A DNA stretch of 62,672 bases from an uncultured Candidatus Saccharibacteria bacterium (lineage in GTDB: Bacteria; Patescibacteriota; Minisyncoccia; Phycocordibacterales; UBA9973): NCBI GenBank assembly GCA_964632605.1, contig CAZWBZ010000004.1, forward strand, positions 1-62,672, in the 5' to 3' direction. Position 1 is the stretch's first letter, and each line of letters opens with the position of its first letter. The position numbers were made by a program, and so were the translations under genes. A model generated the notes under the pieces. That model saw only the letters and a list, made by a program, of their open reading frames with translations. It made no database searches and was not told where the DNA came from. Positions 15,901 through 30,307 of the stretch are shown here, piece after piece.

Positions 15901-18900
15901 ACTGGTAACGGCAGCGCAACAATAGCATCTGGAACACCTACATTTTATAACTTAACTTCTTCAGGAACAGGTACAAAATCTTTGGGTGAAGCCCTAACTG
16001 TAACTAATATTCTTACAGTAGGGAACGGAACTTTGGATACAACAACTGCAAACGATTATACAATCAATGCGGGCAAAATAGACTTTGCTGGAACATCTAG
16101 TTCTGTAATGGGATACAACACTATCGCTGGTTCAAACACCGGAACTTATATTTCTGGTAATATGCTGGCGCAAAGATTTACAGCGTCATCTAGTGGAACA
16201 ATAAGTCAAATCAGTGTTTATCTTGTCGATACAGGACCTAATGTCTTTAAGGTTGCTGTATATTCTGATAATGCTGGTGCGCCAGATACACTGCTGGCAA
16301 CAAGCGCGGGTACAGGTAGCTCTACTACAACTCCGTCTTGGCAAACAGCAGCAATATCTCTTTCTGTCACCAGTGGAGTATCTTACTGGTTTGCTGTGCT
16401 TGGAGCTGGTAATCTAATCATGAATTACGATGTCGTTGGCAGCGGTAATAAAACAGCAGACGACGGTACAAATACTTATCCAACATTTAATGACCCATTT
16501 AATGTTTCTAATTATTACACTGGTACAACTGTTAGTATTTATGCAGATGTTACTGGTTCCAGTGGTGGTACGCTAAAGCTAAATGATTCAACTGTGAATG
16601 TTTCAGGAACAGGTACTGTGTTTGACGCAACAGGGGGGACAATGGACGTTTCTACTGGTACATCTACTATTAAACTAACTGACTCATCAAGTAGTTCTAA
16701 AACTTTTGCTGGAGCGGGTAAGACATATGACAATCTTTGGATTGCCCCAGGTTCTGCTACAGGTTCTTATACTATTTCTGGAGATAATACTTTCCTTGAT
16801 TTTAAAGATGACGGTACGGGGGCGCACGCTATTAACTTTACAGCGGGGTCTACTACTACAATTAGTACACTAACTTTGGATACAAATGCTACGCAGCTTA
16901 TAACACTGCAAAGTACAACTCCAACATCTTATTGGAATTTGGTTGATACTAGTGGTACAAATACTGTTTCTTATGTGTCTATTACAGATAGTTGTGCATC
17001 TGGCGGCGCAACTTGGGATGCTGGTAATGGTACAAATACAAATGGTGGGCATAACTGTGGATGGAGTTTTGTATCGGGTATTACTATTACTGGATCTGCA
17101 AATGGTAACAATACTGCAACTGTAAAGGTTGCTGTAAATGGGACTTTGAATGGTGCTACTACTACAATTGCTAGTAGCGCATGGACATTGTCTGGCGTCT
17201 CTGTAGCAAACAATGACATTATCACTGTTTGGGTGGATAACGTAGCAGACAACTTGGAATCTACTGCTGTAACTAAATACGGGGGATCAGGTAACATCAC
17301 TGGAATGGTCCTAAACACAAACGTATTAACTATTGGTAGTAACCAAAACAATAGCGTATCTACTACTAACCTTGCTCAATACGAAGCAACTGATGATGAA
17401 GATGTAATGCATACTTCTATATCAGGCGCCCTACTTGTACAAGGGGGAAGTAACTCTTACACAGATGAAACATTGTCTGTTCTTGCATCTAACACACTAA
17501 CCGTTAATAGCTCTTCTACTGAATCTATAACAACAGAGAAGATAATTAACGCAGGAACTATAACTGCTTCTGGGACACCATTGATTGAAGTTAATGGTAC
17601 TAGCGGTACTCTTTATACAAACACCGGAACATTTACTCCTGCGTCTTCTACTGTGAACTTTACAGGTAATGGCACCGCTACTTTGAATTCAGGAACTTCA
17701 TCTTTTTATAATCTAAAAGTTTCTGGTTCTGGTACTAAGACATTAGGTGCGGCTGTTACGGCAGCGAACAATCTAGAAGTTCAGACTGGAACATTAGATA
17801 CTAGTTCTGGCAGCAGTTATACTGTTACAGCTGGAAAGATAAATATTACAGGGGGAGCTGGCGGTACATTTGGAGAGACTAGTGTGCTTGGTAGTAGTAA
17901 TACAACAACAAAAATTATTACTACAAGATTCACCGCAACAGCTACTGGTGTTATTAATAAATTAACTGCCAGAGTTTTTGCTAGCAGCGGTACTGTAAAT
18001 ATGCGAGCAGCACTGTATAGCAAGGGAACAATTAACTCGCAAGATGGTCCTGTTAATTTGCTGACTAGTTCTCCTTATAGTGTTTCTTTGAGTATTACTG
18101 ACCAATGGCTGGAGATTCCTTTGAACGATTACACTGTTACAAATGGGGTAGATTATTATTTTGCTATTTGGGGTGATGCTACTTTTGGACTACATTACGA
18201 CTATAATGCAGGTACTTATGCTAATAGAAGCTATGAAGATAACGGTGGAACATTCCCAGCTTGGGTAAACCCAATAACATCTGGAAACGGTACACACTAT
18301 GACACTATTGGATCTTACTATGTAACATATGTTGGTGCTGGAACTTTGGTTGCTAACGGGTCTACTATTAACGTAACAGGTACATCCGGTACGCTGTTTA
18401 CCAAAGATTCATCTGGTACATTTACAGCAGGAACCAGTACTGTAAATCTAACAGGTAATGGTAGTGCTACTATAAATTCAGGAGATCCATCTTTCTATAA
18501 CTTAACTTCTTCAGGAACAGGTACAAAATCTCTTGGTGGCGCATTGACTGCGACAAATACGCTAACTGTGTCTGGCGGCACATTTGAGACAACTGGTAGT
18601 AATCATGCTTTGAACGCCGGTAAAATTGTTTTCAATAGTGGTACATTAAACCTAAACGCTTCAACAGTAAATCTTTCTGGAACTTCTGGCACGCTATTTA
18701 CTAAAACAAACGGTGTGCTTAATGCGGGAACCAGTACTGTAAATCTTAACGGTAACGGCAGCGCTACTGTTGCGTCTGGAGCTCCAAAGTTTTACAACCT
18801 AAATTCTTCAGGAACAGGTACAAAATCTTTAGGAGAGCTACTAGATATCGGAGGAACATTAACTGTGTCTAATGGAACATTTGATACTACGGGTAGTAAC

Positions 18901-20346
18901 TATGGAATAAATGCAGGCAAAATCGCAATGACTGGTACTGCTGGCGTATTGGGTTATCAAACAATAGGTACTGATCCGGGGTCTCCATTTTCTAGAAATT
19001 CGGGTACTTACGATTTCCAAGGAGGTCAATACGTTGCTCCTAATAATGGTACTGTTACTAGTATGAGTGCTTGGGTTAAATCAAATAGTGGATCTTCAAT
19101 GAATTTTAAATTCGGTATTCAGAGATTAGTTGGAACTGATTGGGTAAAGGTTGCTGAATCTAGTAGTGTTAGCGGAGGCGCAGGAGGAAGTCCTTCTTGG
19201 GTAACAGCATCAATATCAGCTTCTCTTATTTCTGGGGAAACCTACTTTATTCAGGTTATTGGAGATGCACCTTTTGGTTTCTATTATGATGGAGGCCTCG
19301 CTGCTTCTTATGTTCAGACAGACGGCGCTTATAGTTCTTTTGCTGTGCCGTCATCACAAACAGATTCTTGGTATTCTAGTAACTGGGGTTGGTATACTAA
19401 TTATGCTAATACTATTTATGCAGATTATGTTTACGGAGGTGGAACTTTGGCTGGTAATTCTTCTGTAATTAATTTAACAGGTACTGGTAATTTGTTTGAC
19501 TATCTTGCCGGTACAGTTTCTCTTTCATCGGCAACGGTTAAGCTTACCGACCAATCTTCTACTGCAAAAACCTTTAATGGTGCTGGTAAGACATTTGGAA
19601 CTCTTTGGATAAATGGATCTGGAACTGGAGAATATACTATCAATGGTTCAAACACATTTACAACATTCAAAGTAGATACTCCTCCTCATACAATTAAATT
19701 TACAGCAGGAACAACAACAACCGTTACAGATTTTGATGTAAATGGTAATGGGGCTGCATCTTTGGTTACACTAAAAAGTACAGTAGATACAAGTAGTTGG
19801 ACTTTGTCTAAAGCTACTGGAACATTGCGTAATTACTATCTTTCAATTAGAGACAGTATTGCCACTGGCGGCGCTACATTCTTGGCGCTAAATAGTACAA
19901 ATGTTTCTGGTAATACTGGATGGCAATTCTTTGAATTCAGTGTTGGCGGCGGCGGTAGCGTGGAATCTAGCGCTAATGTTGGAAGCTGTGCTGATGGTCA
20001 GCAAAACGGTGACGAAACCGGAGTCGACACAGGAGGACGCTGCAGCGGTGGCGGCGGAGCTGGCGGCGATACAACAGGAACTTGCGCTGATGGTATTCAA
20101 AACGGCGATGAGACTGGTACAGACACAGGAGGACGCTGCAGCGGCTATACAGGAACTTGCGCTGATGGTATTCAAAATGGTAACGAGACTGGTACAGACA
20201 CAGGAGGACGCTGCAGCGGCGGCGGCGGAGCTGGCGGCGGAGGAGGAGATCTTGGTTATATAAAAAATAACAGAACTTTTATGATTGCATCTGCCGCGCA
20301 GTTTAACATCTTGAACCTTTTTAAGTATCTATTGGCTTACATTTAG
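6949..20346 (+). CDS. Giant (4465 aa) secreted surface protein made of autotransporter-associated beta-strand (PATR-type) repeats, three beta-sandwich modules and a Cys-repeat C-terminus
   Basis: Single uninterrupted ORF. N-terminal signal-like hydrophobic segment ending TFA-AV. Dozens of G(T/A)GTLxLSGxNTYTGxTTIxxGTL units. No beta-barrel translocator at the C-terminus. TAG stop. Confidence 0.85.
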   Translation: MIYFLKEFVINKKIVTVAKFSIVFLISGFFFFGNINSTFAAVRTWTGTTSGSWSVASNWGGTAPVTGDDLVFPGGASNLSNTNDLTENTIFNSITLSGSGYTLSGNPIILGAGLAGITDSASSGGNTIALNIRLDNVSPIFRNIVVTNTAETLTISGKIAGVGGIAKEGTGTLVLSGGNTFGGILKINAGVVNARHSTALGTIATGTEVVGGAALELQGDIDISYEALTLRGYGVDSNGALRNISGSNTYRGVISLTSAAGTEISSDSGTLTIAGGTSGSAPLVFDGAGNMVFSTTPITGTGIITKNGSGTVTFNFPNTNTGTLTINAGTILYGVNNAILSSAITVTGGTLDIASYSDMVGTVTLGTLDLAAGTITGTSGVLTSSTFTVYNGTISAIIAGDGGTLTKSTAGTVVLTRANQYTGATTVSLGILEIQDSYGLGTIDGITTVTAGATLQIDGSGLSIPEYITFSGTGHLYTGAIRNTTGNNTLTGLLTLGAAALIESDSSTTLTIDSKGISASTLGLTIGGAGNTTFTSSAPIYGTSATLTKVDAGTLTLQAFNNFTGATNFTYGDVVLSGSGAMPLSTAMTISAGASLTLDNTSATNIVDRLADALAITLNGGDFTFVGSNSIAVDETVGVLTAGIATQSGNSRITVTPGSGGSTTMQFASLTRTAGASILFRGTNLGSDPGAGVSNILFTTAPTLTGGTGAANSATIPIIQGAFGDNSPTGTGTDMVTYGRGNSNGLRLLNGAGFSGEYTTNFATTNANIKLTTATAAVTSSINSLILDGTASITNPGSAQVITLASGNILNLVSGNTVAGANTTIAAGAVEINILAPVDVDISALITTTGGLTKSGAGTLTFSTSKTYTGLTSINEGTLLAGTSNFVSSGNITVNNATLDIAGFSDTVGAVILQTGTITGTTGILTGTSYSFREGTVSAILGGAVALTRVATNTATDSVVLLTRENTYTGATTITSGILRIGAAGNGTNTPLGTTGGITTVANQGALDLNGFTLSTAESVSIASIGFGPGTSVAAGNSNMGSIMNTSGTPVSYSGAITLTAAARINADYGALTISGGISGAFAFTSGGFTNSTYTGVLSTITTLTKDGIGVLTLSNSNSFTGTTTISAGTVKLGTAGGATNTPLGTTAAATIVSAGARLDLNGFTLGAAESLTLNGVGYGLGDFASGALMNSSGSSVTYSGLITLGSSGTLIKVDSGSISLTAAGTISGATFGLILGGTGTGSLASIIGTTTGTVTKIGTGTWTLSGISTYTGATAVNNGTLKLGANSAGPTNSVLGTTGGATTVYSGGALDFNGFTLGIAEGVTINGRGVNDGGAFIGSSGTFSGAITQATDSRIANASGTLTLSAAVGGAFSLYIGGAGNITTSAVFAASALSITKQGAGTLTVTGANLYTGYTRVDAGTFAYAATTTLVATNLIMNGGTFNSGANADAIGTVTLIGGTITNSAALTGTSYTFESGTISGILAGAIAVTKNTNNTVTMTGVNTISSTITINAGTLTFSGAGTATAVTGVTVNLGGTLTLDNSTTASTDRLNGTANNVTLALNGGNFNFIGNTAAAASETMGAMTAASGHSTVTITPGAGGSTTMTFASFARTAGATILFRGTSLGSTAAANVSTLLFTAAPTLTGAAGAANSATISVIKGAFGDNSLSGTGTDMVTYNVGNTNGIRRLNATGFTGEYSAVLAANTNVKLTAGTAASTVSINSLILNGFDITNPGSAATVTMASASLSGNILINSANNIAGANTTIGITTFELDILATANSTVSAIIGTATTGSVVLSGTGNVTLSAANLYTSTTFINSATLTAGASNVLSSGGVTIVGGTYNLNGNSDTVGAISINAGTITTGAGTLTGNGTFSTVANNNAASIITGNLGLGANATFTINDGLMDNDALITAVISGAFTFGKAGAGVLELAGSNTFSGVTTISAGILRLGATGDATNTPLGTVAGSTNVSTASAALDLNGFTLGTAEPLTLTGNLATGALQNTSSSSVNYSGLITLGAASTIISNYGDINITNTGTISGATFGLTIGGAGNGSLSSILGTTSGTLTKNGLGVWTASGLSTYTGVTTISAGTFKLGAAGSGTNTPLGTSAGGVSITSGAIFDLNGFTLGTSETATINGTGIASIGAFINSSNNTISYNGALTMGAASRIVNYGTGVLTLTGAITGNFALTTVAVGGITQSTASVWSGTGSLIKEGSGTLILSGQNSTTGAMTVSTGKLQLGASGGAANTPLGTNAGGVTVAAGAALDFSTFSLGGASTYETLNVSGSGISNTGALIFAASTNNNFGAMTVAANTRIINSGSGTVIFGGVITAANGINLAIRGTGPTNINAAFGATATTATLTKWDSGILSINAVSITTGLIRVNGGTLKYGIADALATPAVTVAGGTWDLNGFSEGGTTLIGAVTLIGGSIVNTGGAATITSSATYTVESGTISAVLAGAAIAMNKNTGGTVTLSAANTFAGLTTINAGTLAWGINDALSSGALTVTGGTANLGTSTDTVGAVTLTSGFISSSTGVLTGTAYTFSNSGTVSAILAGSIGLTKTGTGTVSLLGSNTYTGTTTITAGVLRANSTTALGDGSATNTLVFNGGTLRAGGNISSPSGRAVTLTSTGLIDTNNYTVTLAGTIGSASGITKNGMGTLSTTGAVTLGAALTVNNGTFDQASSLSGPTAVTIATSGVWSNVGTGAVTLAGAVVNSGVITLNSNNGTTCIDGPNSILVRSSITNTLRAWSGTGIFNMQNLDVDDMTGAGVTVYNSTLSGDTTWTVGSCGVTVSGSANGNNAATVKLAINGTLQGSSTTISSSSWSLSSGSTVSAGDIITVWVDGVADNLESTAVTKYASGNITGMVLDTNVLTIGSNQNTSVSTTNLAQYEATDDEDVMHTSVSGALLVQGGSNSYTDETLSILASNTLTVNSSSTESITTEKITNAGTITASGTPTISLAGTSGTLFTNTGTFTAASSTVDLTGNGSATIASGTPTFYNLTSSGTGTKSLGEALTVTNILTVGNGTLDTTTANDYTINAGKIDFAGTSSSVMGYNTIAGSNTGTYISGNMLAQRFTASSSGTISQISVYLVDTGPNVFKVAVYSDNAGAPDTLLATSAGTGSSTTTPSWQTAAISLSVTSGVSYWFAVLGAGNLIMNYDVVGSGNKTADDGTNTYPTFNDPFNVSNYYTGTTVSIYADVTGSSGGTLKLNDSTVNVSGTGTVFDATGGTMDVSTGTSTIKLTDSSSSSKTFAGAGKTYDNLWIAPGSATGSYTISGDNTFLDFKDDGTGAHAINFTAGSTTTISTLTLDTNATQLITLQSTTPTSYWNLVDTSGTNTVSYVSITDSCASGGATWDAGNGTNTNGGHNCGWSFVSGITITGSANGNNTATVKVAVNGTLNGATTTIASSAWTLSGVSVANNDIITVWVDNVADNLESTAVTKYGGSGNITGMVLNTNVLTIGSNQNNSVSTTNLAQYEATDDEDVMHTSISGALLVQGGSNSYTDETLSVLASNTLTVNSSSTESITTEKIINAGTITASGTPLIEVNGTSGTLYTNTGTFTPASSTVNFTGNGTATLNSGTSSFYNLKVSGSGTKTLGAAVTAANNLEVQTGTLDTSSGSSYTVTAGKINITGGAGGTFGETSVLGSSNTTTKIITTRFTATATGVINKLTARVFASSGTVNMRAALYSKGTINSQDGPVNLLTSSPYSVSLSITDQWLEIPLNDYTVTNGVDYYFAIWGDATFGLHYDYNAGTYANRSYEDNGGTFPAWVNPITSGNGTHYDTIGSYYVTYVGAGTLVANGSTINVTGTSGTLFTKDSSGTFTAGTSTVNLTGNGSATINSGDPSFYNLTSSGTGTKSLGGALTATNTLTVSGGTFETTGSNHALNAGKIVFNSGTLNLNASTVNLSGTSGTLFTKTNGVLNAGTSTVNLNGNGSATVASGAPKFYNLNSSGTGTKSLGELLDIGGTLTVSNGTFDTTGSNYGINAGKIAMTGTAGVLGYQTIGTDPGSPFSRNSGTYDFQGGQYVAPNNGTVTSMSAWVKSNSGSSMNFKFGIQRLVGTDWVKVAESSSVSGGAGGSPSWVTASISASLISGETYFIQVIGDAPFGFYYDGGLAASYVQTDGAYSSFAVPSSQTDSWYSSNWGWYTNYANTIYADYVYGGGTLAGNSSVINLTGTGNLFDYLAGTVSLSSATVKLTDQSSTAKTFNGAGKTFGTLWINGSGTGEYTINGSNTFTTFKVDTPPHTIKFTAGTTTTVTDFDVNGNGAASLVTLKSTVDTSSWTLSKATGTLRNYYLSIRDSIATGGATFLALNSTNVSGNTGWQFFEFSVGGGGSVESSANVGSCADGQQNGDETGVDTGGRCSGGGGAGGDTTGTCADGIQNGDETGTDTGGRCSGYTGTCADGIQNGNETGTDTGGRCSGGGGAGGGGGDLGYIKNNRTFMIASAAQFNILNLFKYLLAYI
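19987..20214 (+). repeat. Three 57-nt Cys-bracketed coding repeats (C-A-D-G-x-Q-N-G-x-E-T-G-x-D-T-G-G-R-C) with Gly-rich spacers
   Basis: Units at 19987-20043, 20083-20139 and 20158-20214; the last two are nearly identical in DNA. This is a locally GC-rich patch, which also opens the spurious overlapping ORFs at 19888-20263. Confidence 0.8.
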
Positions 20347-20367: not shown

Positions 20368-20397
20368 TTGTCAATGGATTTTTGGGCAAAATATAAT
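20368..20397 (+). promoter_or_regulatory. Candidate sigma70-type promoter
   Basis: TTGTCA (20368-20373), 18-nt spacer, TATAAT (20392-20397), downstream of the giant gene's stop. Confidence 0.35.
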
Positions 20398-20473
20398 TGA
20401 TATTAAGGCTTATCTTATATATAATTAACAGACAAGAGTTAGGAGCTCTAGTTTTATAAGATATATATTTATT

Positions 20474-20878
20474 ATGGAAGAAACAAACGCACCAAAAAAG
20501 GGAATGAGTTCTAAGATTGCAATCGTTATAGCTGTATTGGCTATAGCTGCAGCAGGGTATTTTTACTACCAGCTTTACAAAATGAAGCAAGACCCTAATG
20601 CTCAGGCAAGAAAAGAAGTTGCAGAATTAGTAACAAAAGTTTCAAAACTAGCAGTTTTGCCAGAAGGTGAAACACCAACTGTAGCTACAGTATCTGATAC
20701 TGAAGCTTTGAAAGAACAAGCTTTCTTTAAAAATGCAAAACAAGGCGATAAGGTTTTGATTTATGCAGAAGCTAAAAAAGCTTTTCTTTACAGTGTAGAA
20801 CTAAACAAAATTCTTGAAGTAGCACCATTAAATATTGGTTCTCAAAATAGTACAACTACTACAACAAAAACTAACTAG
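20474..20878 (+). CDS. Small N-terminally membrane-anchored protein, function unknown
   Basis: ATG start, one TM helix (IAIVIAVLAIAAAGYFYY), Thr-rich tail, TAG stop. Confidence 0.5.
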   Translation: MEETNAPKKGMSSKIAIVIAVLAIAAAGYFYYQLYKMKQDPNAQARKEVAELVTKVSKLAVLPEGETPTVATVSDTEALKEQAFFKNAKQGDKVLIYAEAKKAFLYSVELNKILEVAPLNIGSQNSTTTTTKTN

Positions 20879-20910
20879 TACGTTAGCGTAAGCACGCACT
20901 TAATCCCATT

Positions 20911-22266
20911 ATGAGAAGATTTGCAAAAAGTATTTTAAGTATTTCAGCATCTCTAATTGTGATGGGGTTTTTGTTTTCTTATGCTTATGCTCAGTACACT
21001 ACTAGTACAAATTTCCAAATAGAAAATCCTATTGTTGGAACAATGGAAGGAGGTATTTCTACTTCATCTAGCTTTCAATATGTTTCTAGCTCCGGACAGC
21101 TTGAAAGTGGTCAGTCTAGTTCTAGCTCTTTTATGAAGAATGCTGGATTTCTTTATTTTCCAATTGCGACAACTCCAGTAGTTGCAACCACTGCTGGTAA
21201 TGGGGCAGTGCTTGTATCATGGTCTGCATCAGTTGGAACGCTGGGTAACGTAACTAGCTATGAAGTAGGCGTCGGGACTAACGCTTTAGGACCATTTACA
21301 TATACTAATGTTAGTAACGTATTATCAAGCAATGTTACATCTTTGACTAACGGGACAACTTACTACTTCAAAGTACGTTCTTATGTTTCAGGATTAATTG
21401 TTAGTGAATCTGCAGCTGTTAGTGGTACACCTACGGCTGGTACTGGTACTACTACTGGCGGCGGCGGAGGTGGTGGAGGAGGCGGAGGCGTAACTGCTGG
21501 CGCTGTAACTGGAACAACTACAAGTGGAGATACAGGAACCGGAGACGGGCGTATAACTTTTTCTGGTAGAGCTTATCCTAATTCCAAAGTTTCTATTTTA
21601 AAAGATGGTGTTTTAGTTGTAAGTACTATTGCTGACCCCAAGGCTGATTTCTCTGTCAGTATTGGAACTCTTGCTAGCGGTAACTATAATTTCTCTGTTT
21701 ATGGACAAGACAGTAATGAAAGAAAGTCCAACTCATTTTCTTTCCCGGTATTTATATCTCAAGGTTCTACTATAAATATCGGAGGAATATTTCTTTCTCC
21801 TACAATTGATGTAGATAAGAGCGAAGTTAAACAAGGAGAAAACGTTGTTATTTTTGGCCAAAGTGTACCAAGTAGTGATATTACTATTTCTGTTCATTCA
21901 GAAAAAGAAATTTTTAATAAAGTAAAAACAGATAGTTCTGGTGTTTATTTATTAAACTTTGATACAGCTCAGCTTGAGATTGGATCCCACCTTGCAAAGT
22001 CTAAATCTGCCGTAGAGACAGAAGTTAGTCCTTTTGGTAACACTGTTGCTTTCAAGGTAGGTAATGAATCCAAAAAGAAAGAGGTAAATACTTGTTCGTC
22101 TCTTCGTGGAGACCTTAACTGTGACAAGAAAGTAAACCTGGTAGACTTTTCTATAATGGCTTATTGGTATAAGAAAAATAATCCTCCATCAAATGTGGAT
22201 TTAAATAAAGATGGAATTATTAGTTTGGTAGACTTTTCTATAATGGCATTTAATTGGACTGGATAA
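20911..22266 (+). CDS. Secreted protein with an FN3 domain, poly-Gly linker, Ig-like region and a C-terminal dockerin-type repeat pair
   Basis: Signal peptide. FN3-like SWSA...YEV...YYFKVRS. An 11-Gly run at ~21463-21495. The C-terminus GDLNCDKKVNLVDFSIMAYW...DLNKDGIISLVDFSIMAFNW is a duplicated dockerin Ca-binding motif. Confidence 0.7.
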   Translation: MRRFAKSILSISASLIVMGFLFSYAYAQYTTSTNFQIENPIVGTMEGGISTSSSFQYVSSSGQLESGQSSSSSFMKNAGFLYFPIATTPVVATTAGNGAVLVSWSASVGTLGNVTSYEVGVGTNALGPFTYTNVSNVLSSNVTSLTNGTTYYFKVRSYVSGLIVSESAAVSGTPTAGTGTTTGGGGGGGGGGGVTAGAVTGTTTSGDTGTGDGRITFSGRAYPNSKVSILKDGVLVVSTIADPKADFSVSIGTLASGNYNFSVYGQDSNERKSNSFSFPVFISQGSTINIGGIFLSPTIDVDKSEVKQGENVVIFGQSVPSSDITISVHSEKEIFNKVKTDSSGVYLLNFDTAQLEIGSHLAKSKSAVETEVSPFGNTVAFKVGNESKKKEVNTCSSLRGDLNCDKKVNLVDFSIMAYWYKKNNPPSNVDLNKDGIISLVDFSIMAFNWTG

Positions 22267-22269
22267 TAT

Positions 22270-23145
22270 ATGTATAAAAAAATAATCATAACTACAATTT
22301 TCTTTATTGCTTTTGCATTTAATGCTAATGCTTCAGAAATAAAGATATATCCAAGCAATACTAGCCCTGCTATTAACCAGGAATTTTTTGTTGATCTGGT
22401 TTTAGATACTGCAGGGGAAAGTATTAATGGTATCGAGGGTAATATTTCTTTTGACCCTAAAACACTTGTGTTTGTTAGATCAGAGAATTCTAAATCATTT
22501 ATAACCCATTGGATCGTTAGCCCAAGCGTCTCTTCTTCGGGATTAATAAAATTTTCCGGGATTGTGCCTAATGGGTTTATTGGGTTTTTTAATAGTGGTA
22601 CCGATGATACCAGTAAGGGTAATATAATGCGTCTTGTTTTTAAGCCTATTAAATCAGGTAATGCTATTATTTCTGTTTCAGATAGTTTTACTACTTTAAA
22701 TAATGGGGAAGGTACTGTGTCTACTAATATAGTTGTTAGTAGTTTAATAAATATTAGCTCTGATATAAAAGAAGAATCATATAATACTTTTGATGTTATC
22801 TCTCCACAGCTAAATGCCGAGATTGTGTCAGACCCAAATTTATATGACAATAAAAAAACTTTAGTCTTTAATGCTGTAGACAAAGAATCTGGCATCGAGG
22901 GGGTTTATTTGAAAAAAAATAAAGAATGGGTTTTTATTTCTAATCCATTTTTGTTGGAAGAGAGTGAATTGCAAGGTATACTAACTATAAAGGCTGTAGA
23001 CTTTGCAGGTAATAGCACTGTAAAAAGATTTTTGATACCAGGATATAGTAAGAATTTTCTTTATGGCTTAATTTTGGTACTAATAATTTTAACTGCTTTG
23101 TCTATCAGGTTTTTGTATAAGGTATATGCAAAAAATAAAATTTAA
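22270..23145 (+). CDS. Cohesin-like domain protein with signal peptide and C-terminal TM anchor
   Basis: IKIYPSNTSPAINQEFFVDLVLDTAGESINGIEGNISFDPKTLVFV resembles the cohesin-domain proteins annotated in CPR genomes. TM helix FLYGLILVLIILTALSI lies near the C-terminus. Confidence 0.6.
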   Translation: MYKKIIITTIFFIAFAFNANASEIKIYPSNTSPAINQEFFVDLVLDTAGESINGIEGNISFDPKTLVFVRSENSKSFITHWIVSPSVSSSGLIKFSGIVPNGFIGFFNSGTDDTSKGNIMRLVFKPIKSGNAIISVSDSFTTLNNGEGTVSTNIVVSSLINISSDIKEESYNTFDVISPQLNAEIVSDPNLYDNKKTLVFNAVDKESGIEGVYLKKNKEWVFISNPFLLEESELQGILTIKAVDFAGNSTVKRFLIPGYSKNFLYGLILVLIILTALSIRFLYKVYAKNKI

Positions 23146-24022
23146 AAAAATATTAATTTTTATTTGCGCGCTTATATTTATTTTAAGCAGTTCTTTTTCT
23201 GTTGTTAATGCTTCGACTTTAAGAATTTCGCCAGAAGCCGGTAGTTACAGTGTAGGCGATACTATTTATGTAAAGGTAATGGTGTCTAGCCCTAATGAGT
23301 CTATCAACGCTGTCTCTTCTAGGTTAAATTTTTCTCAAGAGAATCTTTCTTTAATATCTATCTCTAAATCTGGGTCTATTATTAGTATTTGGGCTCAGGA
23401 GCCTACATTTTCTAATGCTGCGGGTAGTGCGTCTTTTGAGGGGGTTACACTGGGCGGCTATACTGGCAGTGGCGCTACCGTTGTATCTTTATCTTTTAGA
23501 GCAAGAGCAGAAGGAAGAGCTTCTATCAATTTTACGTCAGGAGCTGTCTTAGCGAACGACGGAGAGGGCACTAATACTTTGACTGGTCAAAATGAGGCTA
23601 CATTTATTATTGGCCCTGCTCCTGTTACGGCTAACACAGAACCTACCAATACAGAGCCTAAAAATACTGTTCAGGAAATAAAAGAAAAAATAAAAGAAGT
23701 TGTTCAGACCAAGCCAGAAAATAAGCCAGGTGAAGTAATAAAGGAAATCCATACAATAGAATACCGTATGGTTAGGTTAGACCCAATGTATGTTTACATG
23801 ATTATTGCTTGGGTAGCGCTGCTTTTCGTTGTTCTTTATCTTTATATTAGATACAAAATCAAAGTTAAAAAAAGAATAAAAGACGTCGAGGGGATTATAG
23901 AGGAAAGCTTTGAAATTTTTAAAGAAGACGAAAAAGAAAAAAGCATAAAGACGCTAGATAGAGACTTTGATGACGCAGAAAAGGTTATAATAGATAAAAT
24001 GAAAGATATCGAAAAAATGTAA
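23126..24022 (+). CDS. Cohesin-like domain protein with signal peptide, C-terminal TM anchor and a charged cytoplasmic tail
   Basis: LRISPEAGSYSVGDTIYVKVMVSS...INAVSSRLNFSQENLSLISISKSGSIISIWAQEPTFSN. TM helix MYVYMIIAWVALLFVVLYLYI. Overlaps the upstream gene by 20 nt. Confidence 0.7.
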   Translation: MQKIKFKKILIFICALIFILSSSFSVVNASTLRISPEAGSYSVGDTIYVKVMVSSPNESINAVSSRLNFSQENLSLISISKSGSIISIWAQEPTFSNAAGSASFEGVTLGGYTGSGATVVSLSFRARAEGRASINFTSGAVLANDGEGTNTLTGQNEATFIIGPAPVTANTEPTNTEPKNTVQEIKEKIKEVVQTKPENKPGEVIKEIHTIEYRMVRLDPMYVYMIIAWVALLFVVLYLYIRYKIKVKKRIKDVEGIIEESFEIFKEDEKEKSIKTLDRDFDDAEKVIIDKMKDIEKM

Positions 24023-25308
24023 TGAATAAAAAAATATTTAAAATTTTCTCTATATTTTTTGCCTTAGTTCTAGCTACGGCGCCTTTGGCTATTTTAGCTG
24101 AAAGCTCTATAAATTTAGATGCTAAAAATCTTTTACCCAAAGTAGATATTTTTATTACACCAAGAAGTAGTACTTTTTTAGTAGGGTCTACTTTTCAGGC
24201 ACCTATTTATATTGATACAAAAGGTAACAATATAAATGCTATTAATCTTAAAATAAATTTTGACCCCAAAAAATTATCCATTGTAAATCCTTCTGGAGGG
24301 AAGTCTATTTTTGGTATTTGGGTTGAATCTCCTCAATACGATAATACTCATGGTACAGCTAGTCTTGCTGGTGTTGTCCCTGGTGGTATTGTTACTAGTT
24401 CTGGTCTTGTAATTACAATGACCTTTAAAGTTCTTTCTTCTGGCAGTACCAGAGTTACGATTAGTGATTCTTCTACCGTAAATGCTAATGATGGTCTGGG
24501 TTCAGAAATTTTAATGAATAAATCTGGGGCTACTTATACGTTGCAAAACAGAGCCCCTAACGGCGCACTTATATATTCTGATACTCATCCTTCTCAGGAT
24601 GATTGGTATAACAACAATAGTCCTTTGCTTGAATGGGGTAGCGACAATGCTAATTTGGGTTATAGTGTTCTTTTTGATAACACTGCTGGGTCTATTCCAG
24701 AGAATAAGATAACAAATAAAGAAGCTTCCCAGTTTTATGAAAATGTAAAAGACGGTATTTGGTATTTCCATGTAAAAACTTTGGCTAAGAATGTATGGGG
24801 CGCAACCAGTCATTTCAAAGTACGTATAGATACTGTGATGCCGGCAGAATTTTCTCCTACGGTAGATTCATTTAAAGATGAGCAGGGTAATAAGAAATAT
24901 ATGATATCGTTCTTTACTACAGATACGATGTCTGGTATTGACCATTACGAAGTTGGTTTAATTAATAAGAAAACCTTGGATACTGCTTCTCCTGTTTTTG
25001 TTGAAGCTCAATCTCCTTATGTTGCGCCGCAAGTTTCTGGTGATACACTGCGCGTAATTATTAGAGCTTACGATGGTGCGGGGAATGTAAGAGAATCTCA
25101 TGTTGATTTGTATCCAGGATTTACACTTGTTCAGGCTCTTAAAAAGACAGGGATATATCTTCTAATATTACTTGTAATAATCTTACTGCTTGAATTATTG
25201 CTGCATTATTTATTTGGACACCATATACTAGACCACCTAAAGAAGGCATACCAAACTTTCAAGACTGTTTCTAAAGACGAGTCAGGAGAAAATATACCAA
25301 GACCTTAA
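24022..25308 (+). CDS. Cohesin-like domain protein with an extra beta-rich domain and a C-terminal TM anchor
   Basis: FLVGSTFQAPIYIDTKGNNINAINLKINFDPKKLSIVNPSGGKSIFGIWVESPQYDN. TM helix IYLLILLVIILLLELLL. Its start overlaps the previous stop by 1 nt. Confidence 0.7.
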   Translation: MNKKIFKIFSIFFALVLATAPLAILAESSINLDAKNLLPKVDIFITPRSSTFLVGSTFQAPIYIDTKGNNINAINLKINFDPKKLSIVNPSGGKSIFGIWVESPQYDNTHGTASLAGVVPGGIVTSSGLVITMTFKVLSSGSTRVTISDSSTVNANDGLGSEILMNKSGATYTLQNRAPNGALIYSDTHPSQDDWYNNNSPLLEWGSDNANLGYSVLFDNTAGSIPENKITNKEASQFYENVKDGIWYFHVKTLAKNVWGATSHFKVRIDTVMPAEFSPTVDSFKDEQGNKKYMISFFTTDTMSGIDHYEVGLINKKTLDTASPVFVEAQSPYVAPQVSGDTLRVIIRAYDGAGNVRESHVDLYPGFTLVQALKKTGIYLLILLVIILLLELLLHYLFGHHILDHLKKAYQTFKTVSKDESGENIPRP

Positions 25309-25312
25309 TCTA

Positions 25313-25321
25313 TGGTATATT
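25313..25321 (+). promoter_or_regulatory. Extended -10 box (tggtatatt) ending 6 nt before the ATG: leaderless-type promoter
   Basis: TGn+TATATT at 25313-25321; ATG at 25328. Confidence 0.45.
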
Positions 25322-25327
25322 TGCCAT

Positions 25328-27061
25328 ATGCAAATACTTTGGCAATACTTAAAACAATATAAATGGTCAATAGCGCTGGCTTTATTTTTGGCCGCAGTTA
25401 ACCAAGTTTTTTCTTTACTTGATCCTTGGATCTTTCAAAAAGTCATAGATAATTACGCTACAAAACCAAGCCTGTATACAACAGAGCAATTTGTTCGTGG
25501 GGTGGGGGTTTTACTGCTTGCTGCTGTTGGGGTGGCTTTTGTTTCAAGAGTTGCTAAAAACTTTCAAGATTATTTTGTAAATAGAATAACTCAAAAAGTT
25601 GGAACAGAAATGTATACCGATGGTATTAAGGAAACTTTGACCATGCCGTATGAAATGTTCGAAGACGAGCAATCAGGGTCGACTTTGTCTAAAATACAAA
25701 AAGTTCGAACTGACGTAGAAAAATTAATTTCTCTTATAATTAATACTTTGTTTGTTAGCCTGGTTGGCTTTATCTTTGTATTTGTTTACGCTGTTAATAT
25801 TTACTGGGTTATTGCGCCTATTTATTTAGCAGCTGTACCTGTAATTGGAGGTGTTAGTTTTCTCTTATCTAAAAAGATTAAAAAAGTCCAAAAAGATATT
25901 ACAGTAGAAAGTAACGCTTTGGCTGGTAACACCACAGAAACACTTCGCAATATTGAACTTGTAAAAGCTCTTGGGCTAGGCGAGAGAGAAGTAGAAAGAC
26001 TAAAAGCCAACTCTGCTGAAATTCTTAAGCTAGAGCTTAAAAAAGTTAAGTACCTAAGAAGTTTATCTTTTGTCCAAGGCAGTATTGTTAACCTGGTTAG
26101 AACACTGCTTTTAGGTAGCATGCTGTATTTTATATTTACAGGAAAAATTTCCTTTGGAGAATTCTTCTCACTTTGGATTTATTCTTTCTTTCTTTTTGCA
26201 CCTTTGCAAAGTATTGGCGATGTTATTACAAGCTGGAGAGAAGCTCAAGTTTCTCTTGAGAACTTTGCAGAAATTAAAAATAAACCTAAAGAATTTTCCC
26301 CAGAGAGCCCTATTATTGTTAGTACTATAAATGGTATAGAAGCAAAAGACGTTTCTTTTAAGCATCGCCATGCGGAACTAGAAGCCATAAAAGGAATTAG
26401 CTTTTCTGCAAATGCTGGGCAAACTATAGCTTTTGTTGGTCCATCTGGGTCAGGTAAATCTACGCTAATAAAGCTCTTAGTAGGTCTTTATAATTCTCAG
26501 GCAGGGTCTATATCTTATAATGGCAATGATATAAATAAATTTAACAAAGATAATTTACGTAGCCGTATTGGTATTGTGACTCAGGATACTCAATTGTTCT
26601 CCGGGACTCTTTTTGAGAACATTTCTTTTGCTAATAAAGACGCAACCAAAGAGGATTGTATTAATGTTTTAGTAGAAGCTGCTGGTCAAAATATTTTAGA
26701 CAGATCTAGTGATGGTATTGATACTAAAATTGGAGAAAACGGTATAAAGCTTTCTGGCGGGGAGAAGCAGCGTATAGCAATAGCTCGTGCTTTGATACGT
26801 AATCCTGATGTTTTGATATTTGACGAAGCAACCAGTGCTCTGGACTCAATTACCGAAGAGTCTATCAGTAGTACTATTAAATCTTTAGGGGGCGGAAGTA
26901 GAATTACTTTTCTTGTTGCTCATAGACTGGGCACTGTTATGCATGCAGATGTGATTTATGTGCTTAAAGATGGAAAAATTTTCGAGCAAGGTGGTCACGA
27001 AAATCTAATAAAAAATAACAGCCTCTACGCTGCATTATGGAAAGAGCAAAGCGGGGAATAG
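25328..27061 (+). CDS. ABC exporter, fused permease + ATPase (MsbA/MdlB-like half transporter)
   Basis: Six-TM N-terminal half. Walker A GPSGSGKST, signature LSGGEKQR, Walker B VLIFDEATS. TAG stop. Confidence 0.9.
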   Translation: MQILWQYLKQYKWSIALALFLAAVNQVFSLLDPWIFQKVIDNYATKPSLYTTEQFVRGVGVLLLAAVGVAFVSRVAKNFQDYFVNRITQKVGTEMYTDGIKETLTMPYEMFEDEQSGSTLSKIQKVRTDVEKLISLIINTLFVSLVGFIFVFVYAVNIYWVIAPIYLAAVPVIGGVSFLLSKKIKKVQKDITVESNALAGNTTETLRNIELVKALGLGEREVERLKANSAEILKLELKKVKYLRSLSFVQGSIVNLVRTLLLGSMLYFIFTGKISFGEFFSLWIYSFFLFAPLQSIGDVITSWREAQVSLENFAEIKNKPKEFSPESPIIVSTINGIEAKDVSFKHRHAELEAIKGISFSANAGQTIAFVGPSGSGKSTLIKLLVGLYNSQAGSISYNGNDINKFNKDNLRSRIGIVTQDTQLFSGTLFENISFANKDATKEDCINVLVEAAGQNILDRSSDGIDTKIGENGIKLSGGEKQRIAIARALIRNPDVLIFDEATSALDSITEESISSTIKSLGGGSRITFLVAHRLGTVMHADVIYVLKDGKIFEQGGHENLIKNNSLYAALWKEQSGE

Positions 27062-27067
27062 TTTTTC

Positions 27068-27096
27068 TTGACATATGTGCTCTTGGTAAGTAGGAT
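27068..27096 (+). promoter_or_regulatory. Candidate sigma70-type promoter
   Basis: TTGACA (27068-27073), 17-nt spacer, TAGGAT (27091-27096). About 75 nt upstream of the ATG at 27171. Confidence 0.35.
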
Positions 27097-27170
27097 AGGG
27101 TTTATAAATTGCTTTTATTAAGATTGCTCGTAACAGTCTAAAAGCATTGTTTTTATTAATTCGTTTCATT

Positions 27171-30100
27171 ATGCAAAAAATCACAAAGATATTCGGATCT
27201 CTTTTGGTGTTAGGAGCTCTTGTTTTAAATACTGTAGCTGTAGTTTCTGCTGCTTCTAGTATCTCTATTAGTAATCCTGGTTTTGAATCTAATCCTGCTT
27301 TTGTTGGCTGGAATGCTGGTTCAAACTGGACAGCGGACTCTAGTGCTAAGCACGGTGGCAGTAAAGCTGCCCGCGTAAAAGGCTCTACTAATTCTAGCAG
27401 TATCTTGAAACAGTCTCCACTATCAACTGCCGGGTATAATAATATCAAAGTTTCTTTTTGGTATTATGCAGGTGAAAGTTTAGAATCAAGTGATTTCGTA
27501 AAAGCGGAATATACAACAGATGGAACAACTTGGAGTACTTTTTATACTATTAACGATGATAATGATTATTCTGGCGGTAGTCATGACGACGATGATGATG
27601 AAGACGATCACCACAACAATAACAATTCAAATAGCGGCTGGTACCAAGCGGTTTCATCTACTTTGCCTGGTGTAGCAAATGATAATCCTAATTTCGGTAT
27701 TCGTTTTGTTGCTAATTTGGATTCTTCTAGTAGAGATTACGTAAACATTGATGACGTTAGTGTTACAGGAGACCAAATACAGTACAAGGTTCTTTCTGTT
27801 AGTGTTGTTGGAGATGGATCTGTTTCTTCAAGTCCAGCTGGTATTAGCTGCGGCGCTGACTGTAGTGAATCTTACGTAAAAGATACTGTTGTTTCTTTAA
27901 CAGCTACCCCAGCTACTGGTTTTGAATTTACTGGATGGTCTGGCGCATGTAGCGGTACTGCTGCTTGTTCTGTAACTATGAGCAATGCTAAAACAGTTAC
28001 AGCAAATTTTGACGCAATAAAGACAACAATTAGTGCAACAAAAATTGTTTGTAATAACGAATCTGATTTGCCTAATTGGGGTTCTGGGGCAGCGGATATA
28101 ACTGCAACTACTGCTAATGATTATGTAGCTTCTCATGCTAATTGTCATTTAGAAAAAGACTGGAATTTTGAATGGGCGCTATATAGTGCTGGAAACCCAG
28201 GAGACAATTCTTTGTCTGGTGGTTCTTCATGGAATGTTTTTGGTCCAACAAATAATTCAGGTATTGCTACTACTGTAGTAGCAGGGCAAGAGCCTTTGTG
28301 GGTTCGTGAACAAATGAAACCAGGATATGTTACTTTTTCTGGAGCAACTAGTGACCTAGATAGTGAAGTTTCTAAAAAATCAGCAGAAATTTACTGTCAA
28401 AGTGACGTTCTAAATTACGATAACTTTGACTATATTAACCAACCTGCTTCTTCAAGTACTGTTTACTGTGTTGCTTTTAATGCACTAGAAAAGCCTGTAG
28501 AAATTGTTAAGCCTGTTATTTCTTTCCTTGGCTTCCGTGATCAAGCTGATGGTTCTTATAATCCTGAAATGCCAATAAATTCTTGCGGCGCTGTTAATAC
28601 AACAGGTGCTATTGCATGGGAATGGAAATTAGATTCTGGAACAGCTCCTATGAGTTATAAATACACTATTACTAGTGGTCCAACAGCTATCGGGTATACA
28701 GCTACAATACCTAATACTTACTACAACGGAACAATTCCAATGGAAGGTACTTATGTTGTAGAAGTAGTCGGCACAGATGCTAATAGTGTAGAAAGTGCGC
28801 CTATTTCTTGCGCTGTTACTTACACAAAGACTCCTGCTACTGTCGACCAATGTCCAAACATAGAAGGAACTCAAGAATCTGTTCCAGAGGGCAAGCACAA
28901 AGATAACGAAGGTAATTGTGTACAAAACGAAGTAGTTCCAGTTTGCAGCGAAAAAACAATGGATGTAGTTTCTGGAACAGATGATCTTTCTGGAAGTTTG
29001 CCTGCTGTTTTGCAAAGCTATATTCATGGCGCTTGGAATACATCTCTTGGTGGTAACTGGATTTGGAATGTTTTAGGCGTGACAAGCCCTACTACTGATG
29101 AAGAAGCAACATTTGCAAAATCTTTTACAATACCGGGTACTCCTTTGTCTGCAACTCTTGATGTTTTGGCTGACAATTCATATTCTGGTTTTGTTAATAG
29201 CTTTACAAGTATCCTAGGTGCTGATGCTGAAAACTTTGGTTCTCCAGATAGTTATAATATTCCAGTAGAAAATCTAGTAAATGGATCAAATAATATTTCA
29301 TTTACTGTTAAAAACTGGGCTCAAGAAGAGGGCAGTGCAGAATCTAACCCAGCTGGTCTAAACTATAAACTACATGTTATTTATAAAGAATGTACTACTC
29401 CTGAAGTTCCAGTTAATACTGCTCCTGTGATAACTCTTAATACTGACACAGATGTTTTGTATGTAGGGGGCGCTTATACAGAAGCCGGTGCAGTAGTTAA
29501 TGATACAGAAGATAATCTTGTTAATTTCCCAGTAACTAGTATTTCAGGGACTGTGGATACAAGTATTGCTGGTAACTACACAATAACTTATACATATACT
29601 GATACTGGCGGTCTTACTGCAACTATAACTAGAACAGTTACTGTAAACCCAGCAGTAGTTATAATTGATGAAGACCCTAAAACTCAGTGTAATGATGGTA
29701 TCGATAATGACGGCGACAACAAAATAGACTTTACTGGCGAAAACGCTGACAGCGGATGCAGTAGCTCTGAAGATAATGATGAAACTAATCCAGTAGTAGT
29801 TGTACCAGAAAATCCTGGTAACCCTGGCGGAGTAGTACCTACAGCATTCTTAGGAGGAGCTCCAGCACCTCAAGGTAGAGTACTGGGCGCTAGTACAACT
29901 TGCGGAATTTATCTAGAAAAATATTTACGTAAGGGTTATAAAAATGATGAAGAATCAGTAAAGAAGGTTCAAAATTTCTTAAATGATTATTTTAAACTAA
30001 ATATCCCCGTAACTGGATTCTTTGGTCCACAAACAGATTCTGGTGTTAAAAAATTCCAAACAAAATTTGCAGATGAAATCTTGAAACCATGGAAATTGAA

Positions 30101-30227
30101 TTCTCCAACAGGAATTGTTTACCTAACTACAACAACAAAGATAAACAAAATAATGTGTCCAGAGCTTGATTTACAAACTCCGACTTTGATCCCAATCGAT
30201 CAAAATCCAGAAGCTCCAAAACTTTAA
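27171..30227 (+). CDS. Large secreted multidomain protein with a C-terminal peptidoglycan-binding (PG_binding_1-like) domain
   Basis: The ATG at 27171 gives a clean signal peptide (MQKITKIFGSLLVLGALVLNTVAVVSA). Contains an acidic/His tract HDDDDDEDDHHNNNN, an InlB-B-repeat-like segment (GWSGACSG...C), an Ig-like DUF5011-type segment and a CNDGIDNDGDNKID motif. The C-terminus VKKVQNFLN...GFFGPQTDSGVKKFQ is PG-binding-like. Confidence 0.75.
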   Translation: MQKITKIFGSLLVLGALVLNTVAVVSAASSISISNPGFESNPAFVGWNAGSNWTADSSAKHGGSKAARVKGSTNSSSILKQSPLSTAGYNNIKVSFWYYAGESLESSDFVKAEYTTDGTTWSTFYTINDDNDYSGGSHDDDDDEDDHHNNNNSNSGWYQAVSSTLPGVANDNPNFGIRFVANLDSSSRDYVNIDDVSVTGDQIQYKVLSVSVVGDGSVSSSPAGISCGADCSESYVKDTVVSLTATPATGFEFTGWSGACSGTAACSVTMSNAKTVTANFDAIKTTISATKIVCNNESDLPNWGSGAADITATTANDYVASHANCHLEKDWNFEWALYSAGNPGDNSLSGGSSWNVFGPTNNSGIATTVVAGQEPLWVREQMKPGYVTFSGATSDLDSEVSKKSAEIYCQSDVLNYDNFDYINQPASSSTVYCVAFNALEKPVEIVKPVISFLGFRDQADGSYNPEMPINSCGAVNTTGAIAWEWKLDSGTAPMSYKYTITSGPTAIGYTATIPNTYYNGTIPMEGTYVVEVVGTDANSVESAPISCAVTYTKTPATVDQCPNIEGTQESVPEGKHKDNEGNCVQNEVVPVCSEKTMDVVSGTDDLSGSLPAVLQSYIHGAWNTSLGGNWIWNVLGVTSPTTDEEATFAKSFTIPGTPLSATLDVLADNSYSGFVNSFTSILGADAENFGSPDSYNIPVENLVNGSNNISFTVKNWAQEEGSAESNPAGLNYKLHVIYKECTTPEVPVNTAPVITLNTDTDVLYVGGAYTEAGAVVNDTEDNLVNFPVTSISGTVDTSIAGNYTITYTYTDTGGLTATITRTVTVNPAVVIIDEDPKTQCNDGIDNDGDNKIDFTGENADSGCSSSEDNDETNPVVVVPENPGNPGGVVPTAFLGGAPAPQGRVLGASTTCGIYLEKYLRKGYKNDEESVKKVQNFLNDYFKLNIPVTGFFGPQTDSGVKKFQTKFADEILKPWKLNSPTGIVYLTTTTKINKIMCPELDLQTPTLIPIDQNPEAPKL

Positions 30228-30240
30228 TTAGTTTTCTAAA

Positions 30241-30273
30241 AAGAGCCCCTTGCCAGACAGGCAGGGGGCTCTT
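30241..30273 (+). terminator. GC-rich 14-bp hairpin after the 27171-30227 gene
   Basis: aagagccccttgcc-agaca-ggcagggggctctt. It lacks a strong downstream T-run, so confidence is moderate. Confidence 0.5.
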
Positions 30274-30292
30274 GCTGTATGTAAATATTATG

Positions 30293-30301
30293 TGTTATAA
30301 T
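30293..30301 (+). promoter_or_regulatory. Extended -10 box (tgttataat) ending 6 nt before an in-frame GTG
   Basis: TGn+TATAAT at 30293-30301; GTG at 30308. The track's TTG (30272) lies inside the terminator hairpin, and the ATG (30290) lies immediately upstream of and abutting this -10 element. Confidence 0.4.
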
Positions 30302-30307
30302 ATTTTT

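Follow-up and report, generated by a model that had tools for sequence, protein, structure and literature searches.

A conserved Patescibacteria gene cluster predicted to connect a secreted dockerin protein to cohesin-type membrane anchors

What are cohesin- and dockerin-type proteins used for in a candidate phyla radiation bacterium (CPR, Patescibacteria) whose neighboring genes give no sign of cellulose degradation? This question is raised by a stretch of 62,672 nucleotides (contig CAZWBZ010000004.1 of assembly GCA_964632605.1, from an uncultured Candidatus Saccharibacteria bacterium), here called the window. A sequence-only reading had interpreted five consecutive genes in it as a dockerin protein, three cohesin-like membrane anchors and an ABC exporter. 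Much of bacterial diversity is accounted for by Patescibacteria, which presumably live on other cells to which they attach, and to our knowledge almost nothing is known of how their envelope structures are built. The open reading frame (ORF) listing of the window places all five genes on the plus strand, namely P2 (20911-22266, 451 amino acids (aa)), P3 (22270-23145, 291 aa), P4 (23126-24022, 298 aa), P5 (24022-25308, 428 aa) and the exporter gene (25328-27061, 577 aa). The positions and the translational coupling described earlier for the genes starting at 22270, 23126 and 24022 were reproduced: the stop codon of P2 (22264-22266) is separated from the ATG of P3 at 22270 by 3 nt, P3 and P4 overlap by 20 nt, and P4 and P5 overlap by 1 nt (TAATG), an operon-like arrangement. 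The analyses described below make it fairly probable that the locus represents an envelope module conserved among Patescibacteria, with a type I-like, non-cellulosomal cohesin-dockerin pair at its core, and that P2 docks onto the membrane anchors.

P2 begins with a hydrophobic helix (residues 4-22), in line with the signal peptide assigned before, and ends in a dockerin. Dockerin_1 of Pfam (PF00404) matched residues 400-445 with 25.5 bits (gathering score 22.9; E 1.6e-5), and the region also matched the PDB dockerin 2y3n_B (E 3e-3). This type I-like dockerin (22099-22263, plus strand; residues 397-451) is the only one in the 62.7-kb window and consists of two repeats of a calcium-binding loop plus helix, DLNCDKKVNLVD-FSIMAYW and DLNKDGIISLVD-FSIMAFNW. 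Both strings that had been quoted as a duplicated dockerin motif are thus present at the end of P2; their cores share 12 of 18 residues, so that the module is internally symmetric. Loop 1 (D401-L-N403-C-D405-K-K-V-N409-L-V-D412) and loop 2 (D430-L-N432-K-D434-G-I-I-S438-L-V-D441) keep the canonical pattern of two ~22-residue repeats, each with a 12-residue calcium-binding loop (D1, N3, D5, D/N/S9, D12) followed by a helix. Among 115 homologs, D401, N403, D405, N409, D412, N432, D434 and D441 show little or no variation, and the loop residues as a whole are invariant or at least 90% conserved, with the exception of D430. An AlphaFold2 model of P2 built on 115 homologs reached a mean predicted local distance difference test (pLDDT) score of 81.7, with all globular domains above 90. 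It comprises a fibronectin type III (FN3) domain at ~85-176, a disordered linker, two immunoglobulin (Ig)-like domains at 212-386 and a two-helix dockerin, the helices of which (410-418 and 439-447) were predicted with pLDDT values of ~90. A Foldseek search with the whole P2 model returned generic FN3/Ig tandems only.

The part of P2 between its two ends corresponds to what had been described as an FN3 domain, an 11-Gly linker and an Ig-like region. Pfam recognized fn3 at 91-170 (23.1 bits, slightly below the gathering score of 25) and the Ig domain Big_6 at 216-279 (30.9 bits), and residues 183-193 are exactly 11 glycines. As delimited here, this segment (21169-22068, plus strand) is made up of FN3 (87-176), the Gly11 linker (183-193) and two Ig-like domains (212-296 and 297-386). 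It is preceded by a Ser/Phe-rich motif of ~55 residues, here termed the N-motif (20989-21168, plus strand; residues 27-86), which follows the signal peptide and has the consensus S..F....P...GG...S..F...S....G.S.S..F....GFLYFP. The N-motif is strongly conserved, yet it is unfolded in the AlphaFold2 model (pLDDT <50). An exhaustive search of 1.84 billion representative proteins for this motif yielded 159 matches, N-terminal in all cases and nearly always paired with a C-terminal dockerin. Among the architectures found, N-motif-FN3-Ig-Ig-dockerin (30 proteins) and N-motif-FN3-dockerin (18 proteins) occur next to 30 proteins of 160-330 aa in which only a Gly/Pro linker joins N-motif and dockerin, besides others; a few end in other domains or directly in a C-terminal transmembrane (TM) helix. 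Relatives of P2 carry a spacer of zero to four domains, some being just 160-190 aa long, and minimal connectors of 161 and 179 aa occur in the same operon, where giant protein, small TM protein, connector, short anchor and long anchor follow one another. Since the spacer varies in this way while N-motif and dockerin are invariant, P2 is a two-ended connector, and the FN3/Ig region is, as far as these architectures tell, its dispensable, optional spacer and not its business end. The earlier emphasis on an FN3/Ig adhesin has therefore to be given up. The dockerin is as conserved as the N-motif, which implies that it must have a partner. Since the minimal connectors are composed of the motif, a linker of ~20 residues and the dockerin, the partner of the N-motif is expected within a few nm of the cohesin. 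It may be added that the public NCBI call of P2 is 434 aa long and starts 17 codons after the ATG at 20911 (20911-20961), which truncates the signal peptide; in the Logan assembly, with identical sequence, P2 was called at its full 451 aa.

The candidate partners are encoded directly downstream. P3, P4 and P5 each contain an N-terminal signal-type hydrophobic segment and a single C-terminal TM segment (264-282, 223-241 and 380-398, respectively). At the level of Pfam, the assignment of cohesin and dockerin modules was borne out in part: like the dockerin of P2, the cohesin of P5 exceeds its gathering threshold (PF00963, 39.3 bits; cut-off 24.1), whereas P3 and P4 had no Pfam cohesin match at E<=1, and of ten P3 orthologs only one was matched (E 0.0015). 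Direct comparisons linked the three N-terminal domains to each other, with BLASTP E-values of 5e-15 for P3-P5, 3e-21 for P4-P5 and 3e-12 for P3-P4. A family cohesin hidden Markov model (HMM) derived from P5 orthologs recognized P3 (E 1e-18), P4 (3e-29) and P5 (2e-66), and hhalign aligned the P3 family with the P5 family (probability 99.85%, E 6.5e-31), with cohesin, TM segment and the Ig-like domain next to the membrane all covered. Judged by these comparisons, P3 and P4 are clearly divergent paralogs of P5, and the description of all three proteins as carrying a signal peptide, one cohesin-type module and one C-terminal TM helix holds.

The paralogs differ in what lies between cohesin and membrane. 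P5, the long or 'L' type anchor, consists of the cohesin (40-175), a beta-domain (183-269), an Ig-like domain (280-363) and a helix from residue 367 onward that includes the TM core. The short or 'S' type anchor P3 amounts to a P5 that lacks the middle domain, with a divergent cohesin (~23-153) and an Ig-like domain (~176-255) in front of the TM segment. P4, the 'N' type without extra domains, has a cohesin (~31-162), a Thr/Pro/Glu/Lys-rich linker and, after the TM segment, a charged cytoplasmic tail of ~55 aa. The fold was compared for P5 alone. Its cohesin matched the PDB sequence 4uyp_A (E 7e-5), and its AlphaFold2 model (pLDDT 92.4) shows a beta-sandwich at 40-175. The top Foldseek hit of this model was the cohesin-FN3 double module 2w1n of C. 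perfringens (E 1e-10). Superposition on the cohesins 2w1n, 4uyp, 4dh2, 6kgf, 2vn5, 1g1k and 2vo8, several of which were crystallized with their dockerins, gave target TM-scores of 0.64-0.79 and root-mean-square deviations (rmsd) of 2.4-3.4 Å over ~150 columns. P3 is the fastest-evolving member of the set: only 10 homologs of it are detectable, compared with 682 or more for P5 and 1716 or more for P2, and its identity is 49-59% on shared contigs that show 75-89% for P2.

Two further observations concern the cytoplasmic side of the anchors. P5 contains a juxtamembrane motif, HYLxGHH (residues 395-401, 25204-25224), at the cytoplasmic end of its TM helix, in which H395, Y396, G399 and H400 are at least 90% conserved in 110 homologs; this may indicate a metal site or an interaction partner in the cytoplasm. 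In two lineages with minimal connectors (loci L087, 7117-9132, and L089, 3898-5925) the long anchor is ~670 aa in length and possesses one more extracellular domain, a second TM helix and a coiled-coil-like tail in the cytoplasm. Going by these predicted topologies, bitopic as well as polytopic cohesin anchors occur, and their cytoplasmic portion can be considerable.

Full-length homologs of P2 and P5 number in the hundreds to thousands and are 44-90% identical. The sources named for them include Nomura-, Uhr-, Taylor-, Magasanik- and Vogelbacteria, Paceibacterota, Minisyncoccia and 'Patescibacteria group'. Every named homolog thus comes from Paceibacteria or Parcubacteria lineages and similar groups, in accordance with the CPR host proposed from the sequence. 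Gracilibacteria and Absconditabacteria, which had been suggested for comparison, proved to be the wrong groups: the window translates in the standard code (the ORF of 4465 aa is read under table 11), and the relatives belong mostly to Paceibacteria and ABY1-type lineages. In a census with one genome per GTDB species, a relative of P2 was found in at least 514 species-representative Patescibacteria genomes. For gene-order statistics 80 loci were fetched, 77 of which included downstream sequence. All 80 contain exactly one dockerin gene, and in all 77 it is followed by two to four cohesin genes, the first of which starts between -45 and +600 nt from the dockerin stop codon. The order usually found is short anchor, optional plain anchor and long anchor, the window containing the full S-N-L set. 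The gene order from dockerin to cohesin is therefore conserved in every informative locus, as the earlier interpretation required. A rearranged module was observed in one Nomurabacteria genome (L001, 8227-12037), where the dockerin protein has only 300 aa and no N-motif, the long anchor (678 aa) carries two tandem cohesins, and several extra genes for proteins of 330-375 aa lie ahead. Across orders, the core proteins of the module are 45-75% identical, which is unusually high for surface proteins. Together with the occurrence in at least 514 species, this points to a basic envelope function and not to a niche adhesin. The expectation that such loci are annotated piecemeal also proved right, since NCBI labels the homologs 'cohesin domain-containing', 'dockerin type I domain-containing' or 'hypothetical', and a literature search retrieved no description of this CPR operon.

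Next to P2-P5, the module includes a gene not considered before. It is located immediately upstream of P2 (20474-20878, plus strand) and encodes a small type II membrane protein of 134 aa with a TM segment at 12-30 and a C-terminal ectodomain of ~95 aa. Of 77 related loci, 57 have a same-strand homolog upstream, which is adjacent in 45, and homologs (E ~1e-43) also lie beside the minimal connectors. With respect to the nearest relatives, its identity amounts to 77-78%, compared to 72-73% for P2, 62-65% for P5, 51-54% for P4 and 38-45% for P3. On the basis of position and identity, the small TM protein is thus to be counted as a module member, and as its best-conserved one. It belongs to no known family; Pfam and PDB searches gave no significant match, the best being SpoIIIAH (E 0.04) and FliL (E 0.008), both of which fall well short of the cut-offs. 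The two best sigma-70-like sites of the region (11/12 matches) are located at 20368-20425, just upstream of this gene; across the region, however, promoter-like sites are as frequent as expected by chance (25 vs. 23.4 in shuffled sequences). Still further upstream, the ORF of 4465 aa (6949-20346, plus strand) encodes a giant, repeat-rich secreted protein, for which the association is positional and membership in the module putative. Inside this protein a long segment ('...SANGNNAATVKLAINGTL...NLAQYEATDDEDVMHTS...TEKITNAGTITASGTP') occurs twice in near-identical form, and the protein ends in three Cys-flanked acidic repeats (CADGIQNGDETGTDTGGRC) followed by a hydrophobic C-terminus. A similar acidic double-disulfide repeat is present in the 1026-aa protein encoded at 27147-30227 (NCBIfam NF033662, weak).

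Taken as a connector complex, the locus would operate as follows. P3, P4 and P5 would each present one cohesin on the outer face of the cytoplasmic membrane, and secreted P2 would dock onto one or more of them by means of the calcium loops of its C-terminal dockerin; that the dockerin binds the adjacent cohesins is what we infer from module identity and gene order. The N-motif at the other end may engage a second partner by strand addition or by oligomerization, the best candidates being the small TM protein and the giant surface protein of variable sequence, and other copies of P2 a further one. FN3 and Ig domains between the two ends would serve as a spacer of lineage-specific length. The cellular role might then be to assemble or tether a structure at the surface of a cell that has a wall but no outer membrane.

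Evidence on this proposal from co-evolution is slight. In partial Mantel tests on distance matrices, the dockerin correlated a little better with each of the three cohesin classes (r values of 0.32, 0.19 and 0.17) than did the N-motif, used as control (0.19, 0.15 and 0.03), which speaks weakly in its favor. These mirror-tree correlations are positive but weak, lie barely above the controls and do not tell the cohesins apart. The failure of Pfam to recognize a cohesin in P3 and P4 counts against the proposal, as does the ratio of one dockerin to two to five distinct cohesins, which is the reverse of the usual stoichiometry. The reach of a few nm available to minimal connectors argues against a role as long-reach adhesin and leaves the partner unspecified, and no dockerin or other recognizable attachment module was found in the giant protein.

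Comparison with characterized systems places the pair close to, but outside, the cellulosome. Cellulosomal type I pairs, such as ScaC-ScaB of A. cellulolyticus (4UYP), OlpC-Doc435 of C. thermocellum (4DH2) and the pair of C. cellulolyticum (2VN5), belong to the same Pfam module families, and the predicted fold of P5 is alike (TM-score 0.64-0.78, rmsd ~3 Å). The duplicated, internally symmetric dockerin of P2 resembles dockerins with a dual binding mode, and in both cases the cell secretes the protein with the dockerin and keeps the one with the cohesin bound to itself. Unlike in cellulosomes, neither enzymes nor a carbohydrate-binding module (CBM) nor a multi-cohesin scaffoldin are present here (Pfam yielded no CBM or S-layer homology (SLH) match), one dockerin protein faces several single-cohesin anchors in a CPR host, a C-terminal TM helix takes the place of SLH domains or sortase, and P2 possesses a second conserved end of binding type. 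Non-cellulosomal cohesin-dockerin modules are known from C. perfringens, Archaeoglobus fulgidus and ANME (anaerobic methanotrophic) archaea (Peer et al., 2009, and others, as referred to in PMC9012536), and giant proteins of Omnitrophota also carry them (10.1101/2023.11.21.568195). Like the locus described here, these systems, which include the GH84C/toxin complexes of C. perfringens, lie outside cellulose degradation and use single cohesins without a large scaffoldin; the best structural match of P5 is also one of them, the C. perfringens structure 2W1N with its cohesin and subsequent FN3-like domain. They differ in that they link enzymes, toxins, substrate-binding or S-layer proteins, whereas P2 has no functional domain beyond its N-terminal strand motif, and in that the operon studied here is tightly conserved across hundreds of species and its cohesins are TM-anchored. 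The only related statement retrieved from the literature is that a dockerin-domain protein is essential in a Saccharibacterium (Cell 2023; PMC10633639). This Southlakia protein, SEML1_0315, was considered as an ortholog of P2 and rejected, as it has 927 aa and a different gene context.

Against this background, the presence of type I-like cohesin and dockerin modules, by sequence and by fold, might be taken to indicate a cellulosome-like complex for polysaccharide degradation. Such a complex is extremely improbable, given that P2-P5 contain no catalytic or carbohydrate-binding module, that a single dockerin and one cohesin per protein (no multi-cohesin scaffoldin) are encoded in the window, and that anchoring relies on a TM helix instead of SLH domains or sortase; as already noted from the sequence, Pfam detected no glycoside hydrolase in the window. 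Nearly as improbable is a scaffold coupled to the ABC exporter, which would secrete or energize the cohesin-dockerin proteins. The exporter gene does share the strand of P5 and starts 19 nt behind it, and no terminator-like site separates the two. The leaderless-type promoter of its own that had been ascribed to it is not supported, promoter-like sites not exceeding shuffled controls. Its product contains ABC_membrane and ABC_tran, and MsbA is its best NCBIfam model; its description as MsbA-like stands in this sense, although the score of 348 bits remains below the equivalog cut-off of 602. The module proteins, however, all carry signal peptides of Sec type, and the exporter is best regarded as a local neighbor outside the conserved module, because homologs occur within 10 kb in only six of 80 related loci, are adjacent in none and are missing in the nearest relatives, in which P2 is 72-73% identical. 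Elsewhere it is gyrB, pyrG or some other gene that comes after the long anchor. Since conserved linkage is lacking, a coupling to the exporter, and with it the inclusion of this protein in the system, is refuted for practical purposes.

Two other explanations are unlikely to a lesser degree, and we rate them alike. The locus might be a variant of the Pam pilus described for Ca. Mycosynbacter amalyticus, in which PamT is the proposed tip pilin, PamC/D are membrane-anchored chaperones and PamR is the anchor (10.64898/2026.03.03.709456). P2 would then be a relative of PamT at the tip or base of a filament, and P3-P5 would act like PamC, PamD and PamR and assemble or hold the fiber by strand complementation, cohesin-dockerin docking being secondary. 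Indeed, the PamT model of NCBIfam (NF058579) matched the N-motif of P2 with 25.3 bits and many relatives with 15-31 bits, in one N-motif-FN3-dockerin protein (P0274) over HMM positions 12-197 of 241, and a conserved motif that is unfolded alone is what would be expected of a strand in need of a partner. Pam components are likewise CPR-specific, Sec-secreted beta-sandwich proteins, the chaperones and the anchor having C-terminal TM helices (10.64898/2026.03.03.709456). Yet the PamT match in P2 is confined to residues 13-81 and scores about ten-fold below the family cut-off of 240 bits, and it is read as distant homology of one module, not as Pam membership. In a scan of eight proteins (20474-31339), PamT was the only Pam model with a match at E<=1; the locus contains neither PamA/B-type pilins nor PapD-like chaperones, and the N-terminal domain of P5 matches cohesins specifically and not such chaperones. 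A dockerin conserved as much as the N-motif also needs a partner. In addition, the Pam pilus is centered on Saccharimonadia and Microgenomatia and the present locus on Paceibacteria and ABY1, and the Pam preprint does not mention cohesin or dockerin (10.64898/2026.03.03.709456). The other explanation is that the module holds the variable giant adhesin on the cell, with the fast-evolving P3 or the N-motif of P2 as adaptor that tracks its cargo. Of 57 loci with 4.5 kb or more of upstream sequence, 40 have a same-strand ORF of 900 aa or longer whose end lies no farther than 2.5 kb upstream, and giants are also present beside minimal connectors; these giants vary while the module is conserved, and P3 evolves much faster than its neighbors. 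In the remaining 17 loci, however, no giant gene occupies this position, and as genes for large surface proteins are common in the window, the adjacency may be coincidental. No dockerin and no common terminal module were found in the giants, whose sequences are not conserved beyond close relatives; for these reasons the giant was rejected as conserved cargo.

The surroundings of the locus provide some additional observations. The rest of the window includes chromosomal genes of an ordinary kind (rpsL, rpsG, fusA, thyA, folA, glyA, nusG, ribonucleotide reductase and pilM) as well as several large secreted proteins, genes for big surface proteins being common throughout. Two of the latter, encoded at 27147-30227 and 35473-38622 (1049 aa), end in the peptidoglycan-binding domain PG_binding_1, so that anchoring to the wall occurs in the same 62-kb stretch as the different anchoring by TM helices. 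A protein of 1548 aa (337-4983) carries Peptidase_S74, an endosialidase-type intramolecular chaperone, at residues 1324-1377 and is thus tail-fiber-like; a tail-fiber-like protein is reported to be a conserved neighbor of pam operons (10.64898/2026.03.03.709456). The gene for elongation factor G (EF-G; 49829-51970) seems to be broken: an ORF of 551 aa covers the GTPase domain up to the start of domain IV and then stops, followed by overlapping ORFs in other frames (51279-51692 and 51539-51970). A frameshift, an assembly error or another cause could account for this.

Returning to the connector complex of P2 and its anchors, what is new is not the modules themselves, which are known, but the TM-anchored single cohesins, the two-ended connector without enzymes, the co-conserved small TM protein and the occurrence of this operon across hundreds of species. 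A bolder possibility, to which we attach a rather low probability, is that the locus encodes a sortase-independent appendage found throughout Patescibacteria. A PamT-like strand motif would nucleate or cap a fiber or oligomer (the variable giant adhesin, perhaps, or three connectors joined together), the cohesin-dockerin pair would hold it as a purely non-covalent plug in two to five specialized membrane sockets, and the small TM protein would act as an assembly factor not recognized before. If true, the locus would stand for an envelope machine of a new class, one that likely helps to determine how cells of the largest uncultivated radiation of bacteria attach to their hosts. For the connector complex as such, the dockerin, the three cohesins, the N-motif and the ectodomain of the small TM protein represent concrete constructs for testing, and the N-motif, through its weak similarity to PamT, connects this locus with the Pam pilus described a short time ago. 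Should cohesin and dockerin really be in contact, one of the strongest non-covalent interactions known between proteins would serve as membrane anchor in a cell that has a wall but no outer membrane, and the length of the connector would be tuned by the insertion of domains.

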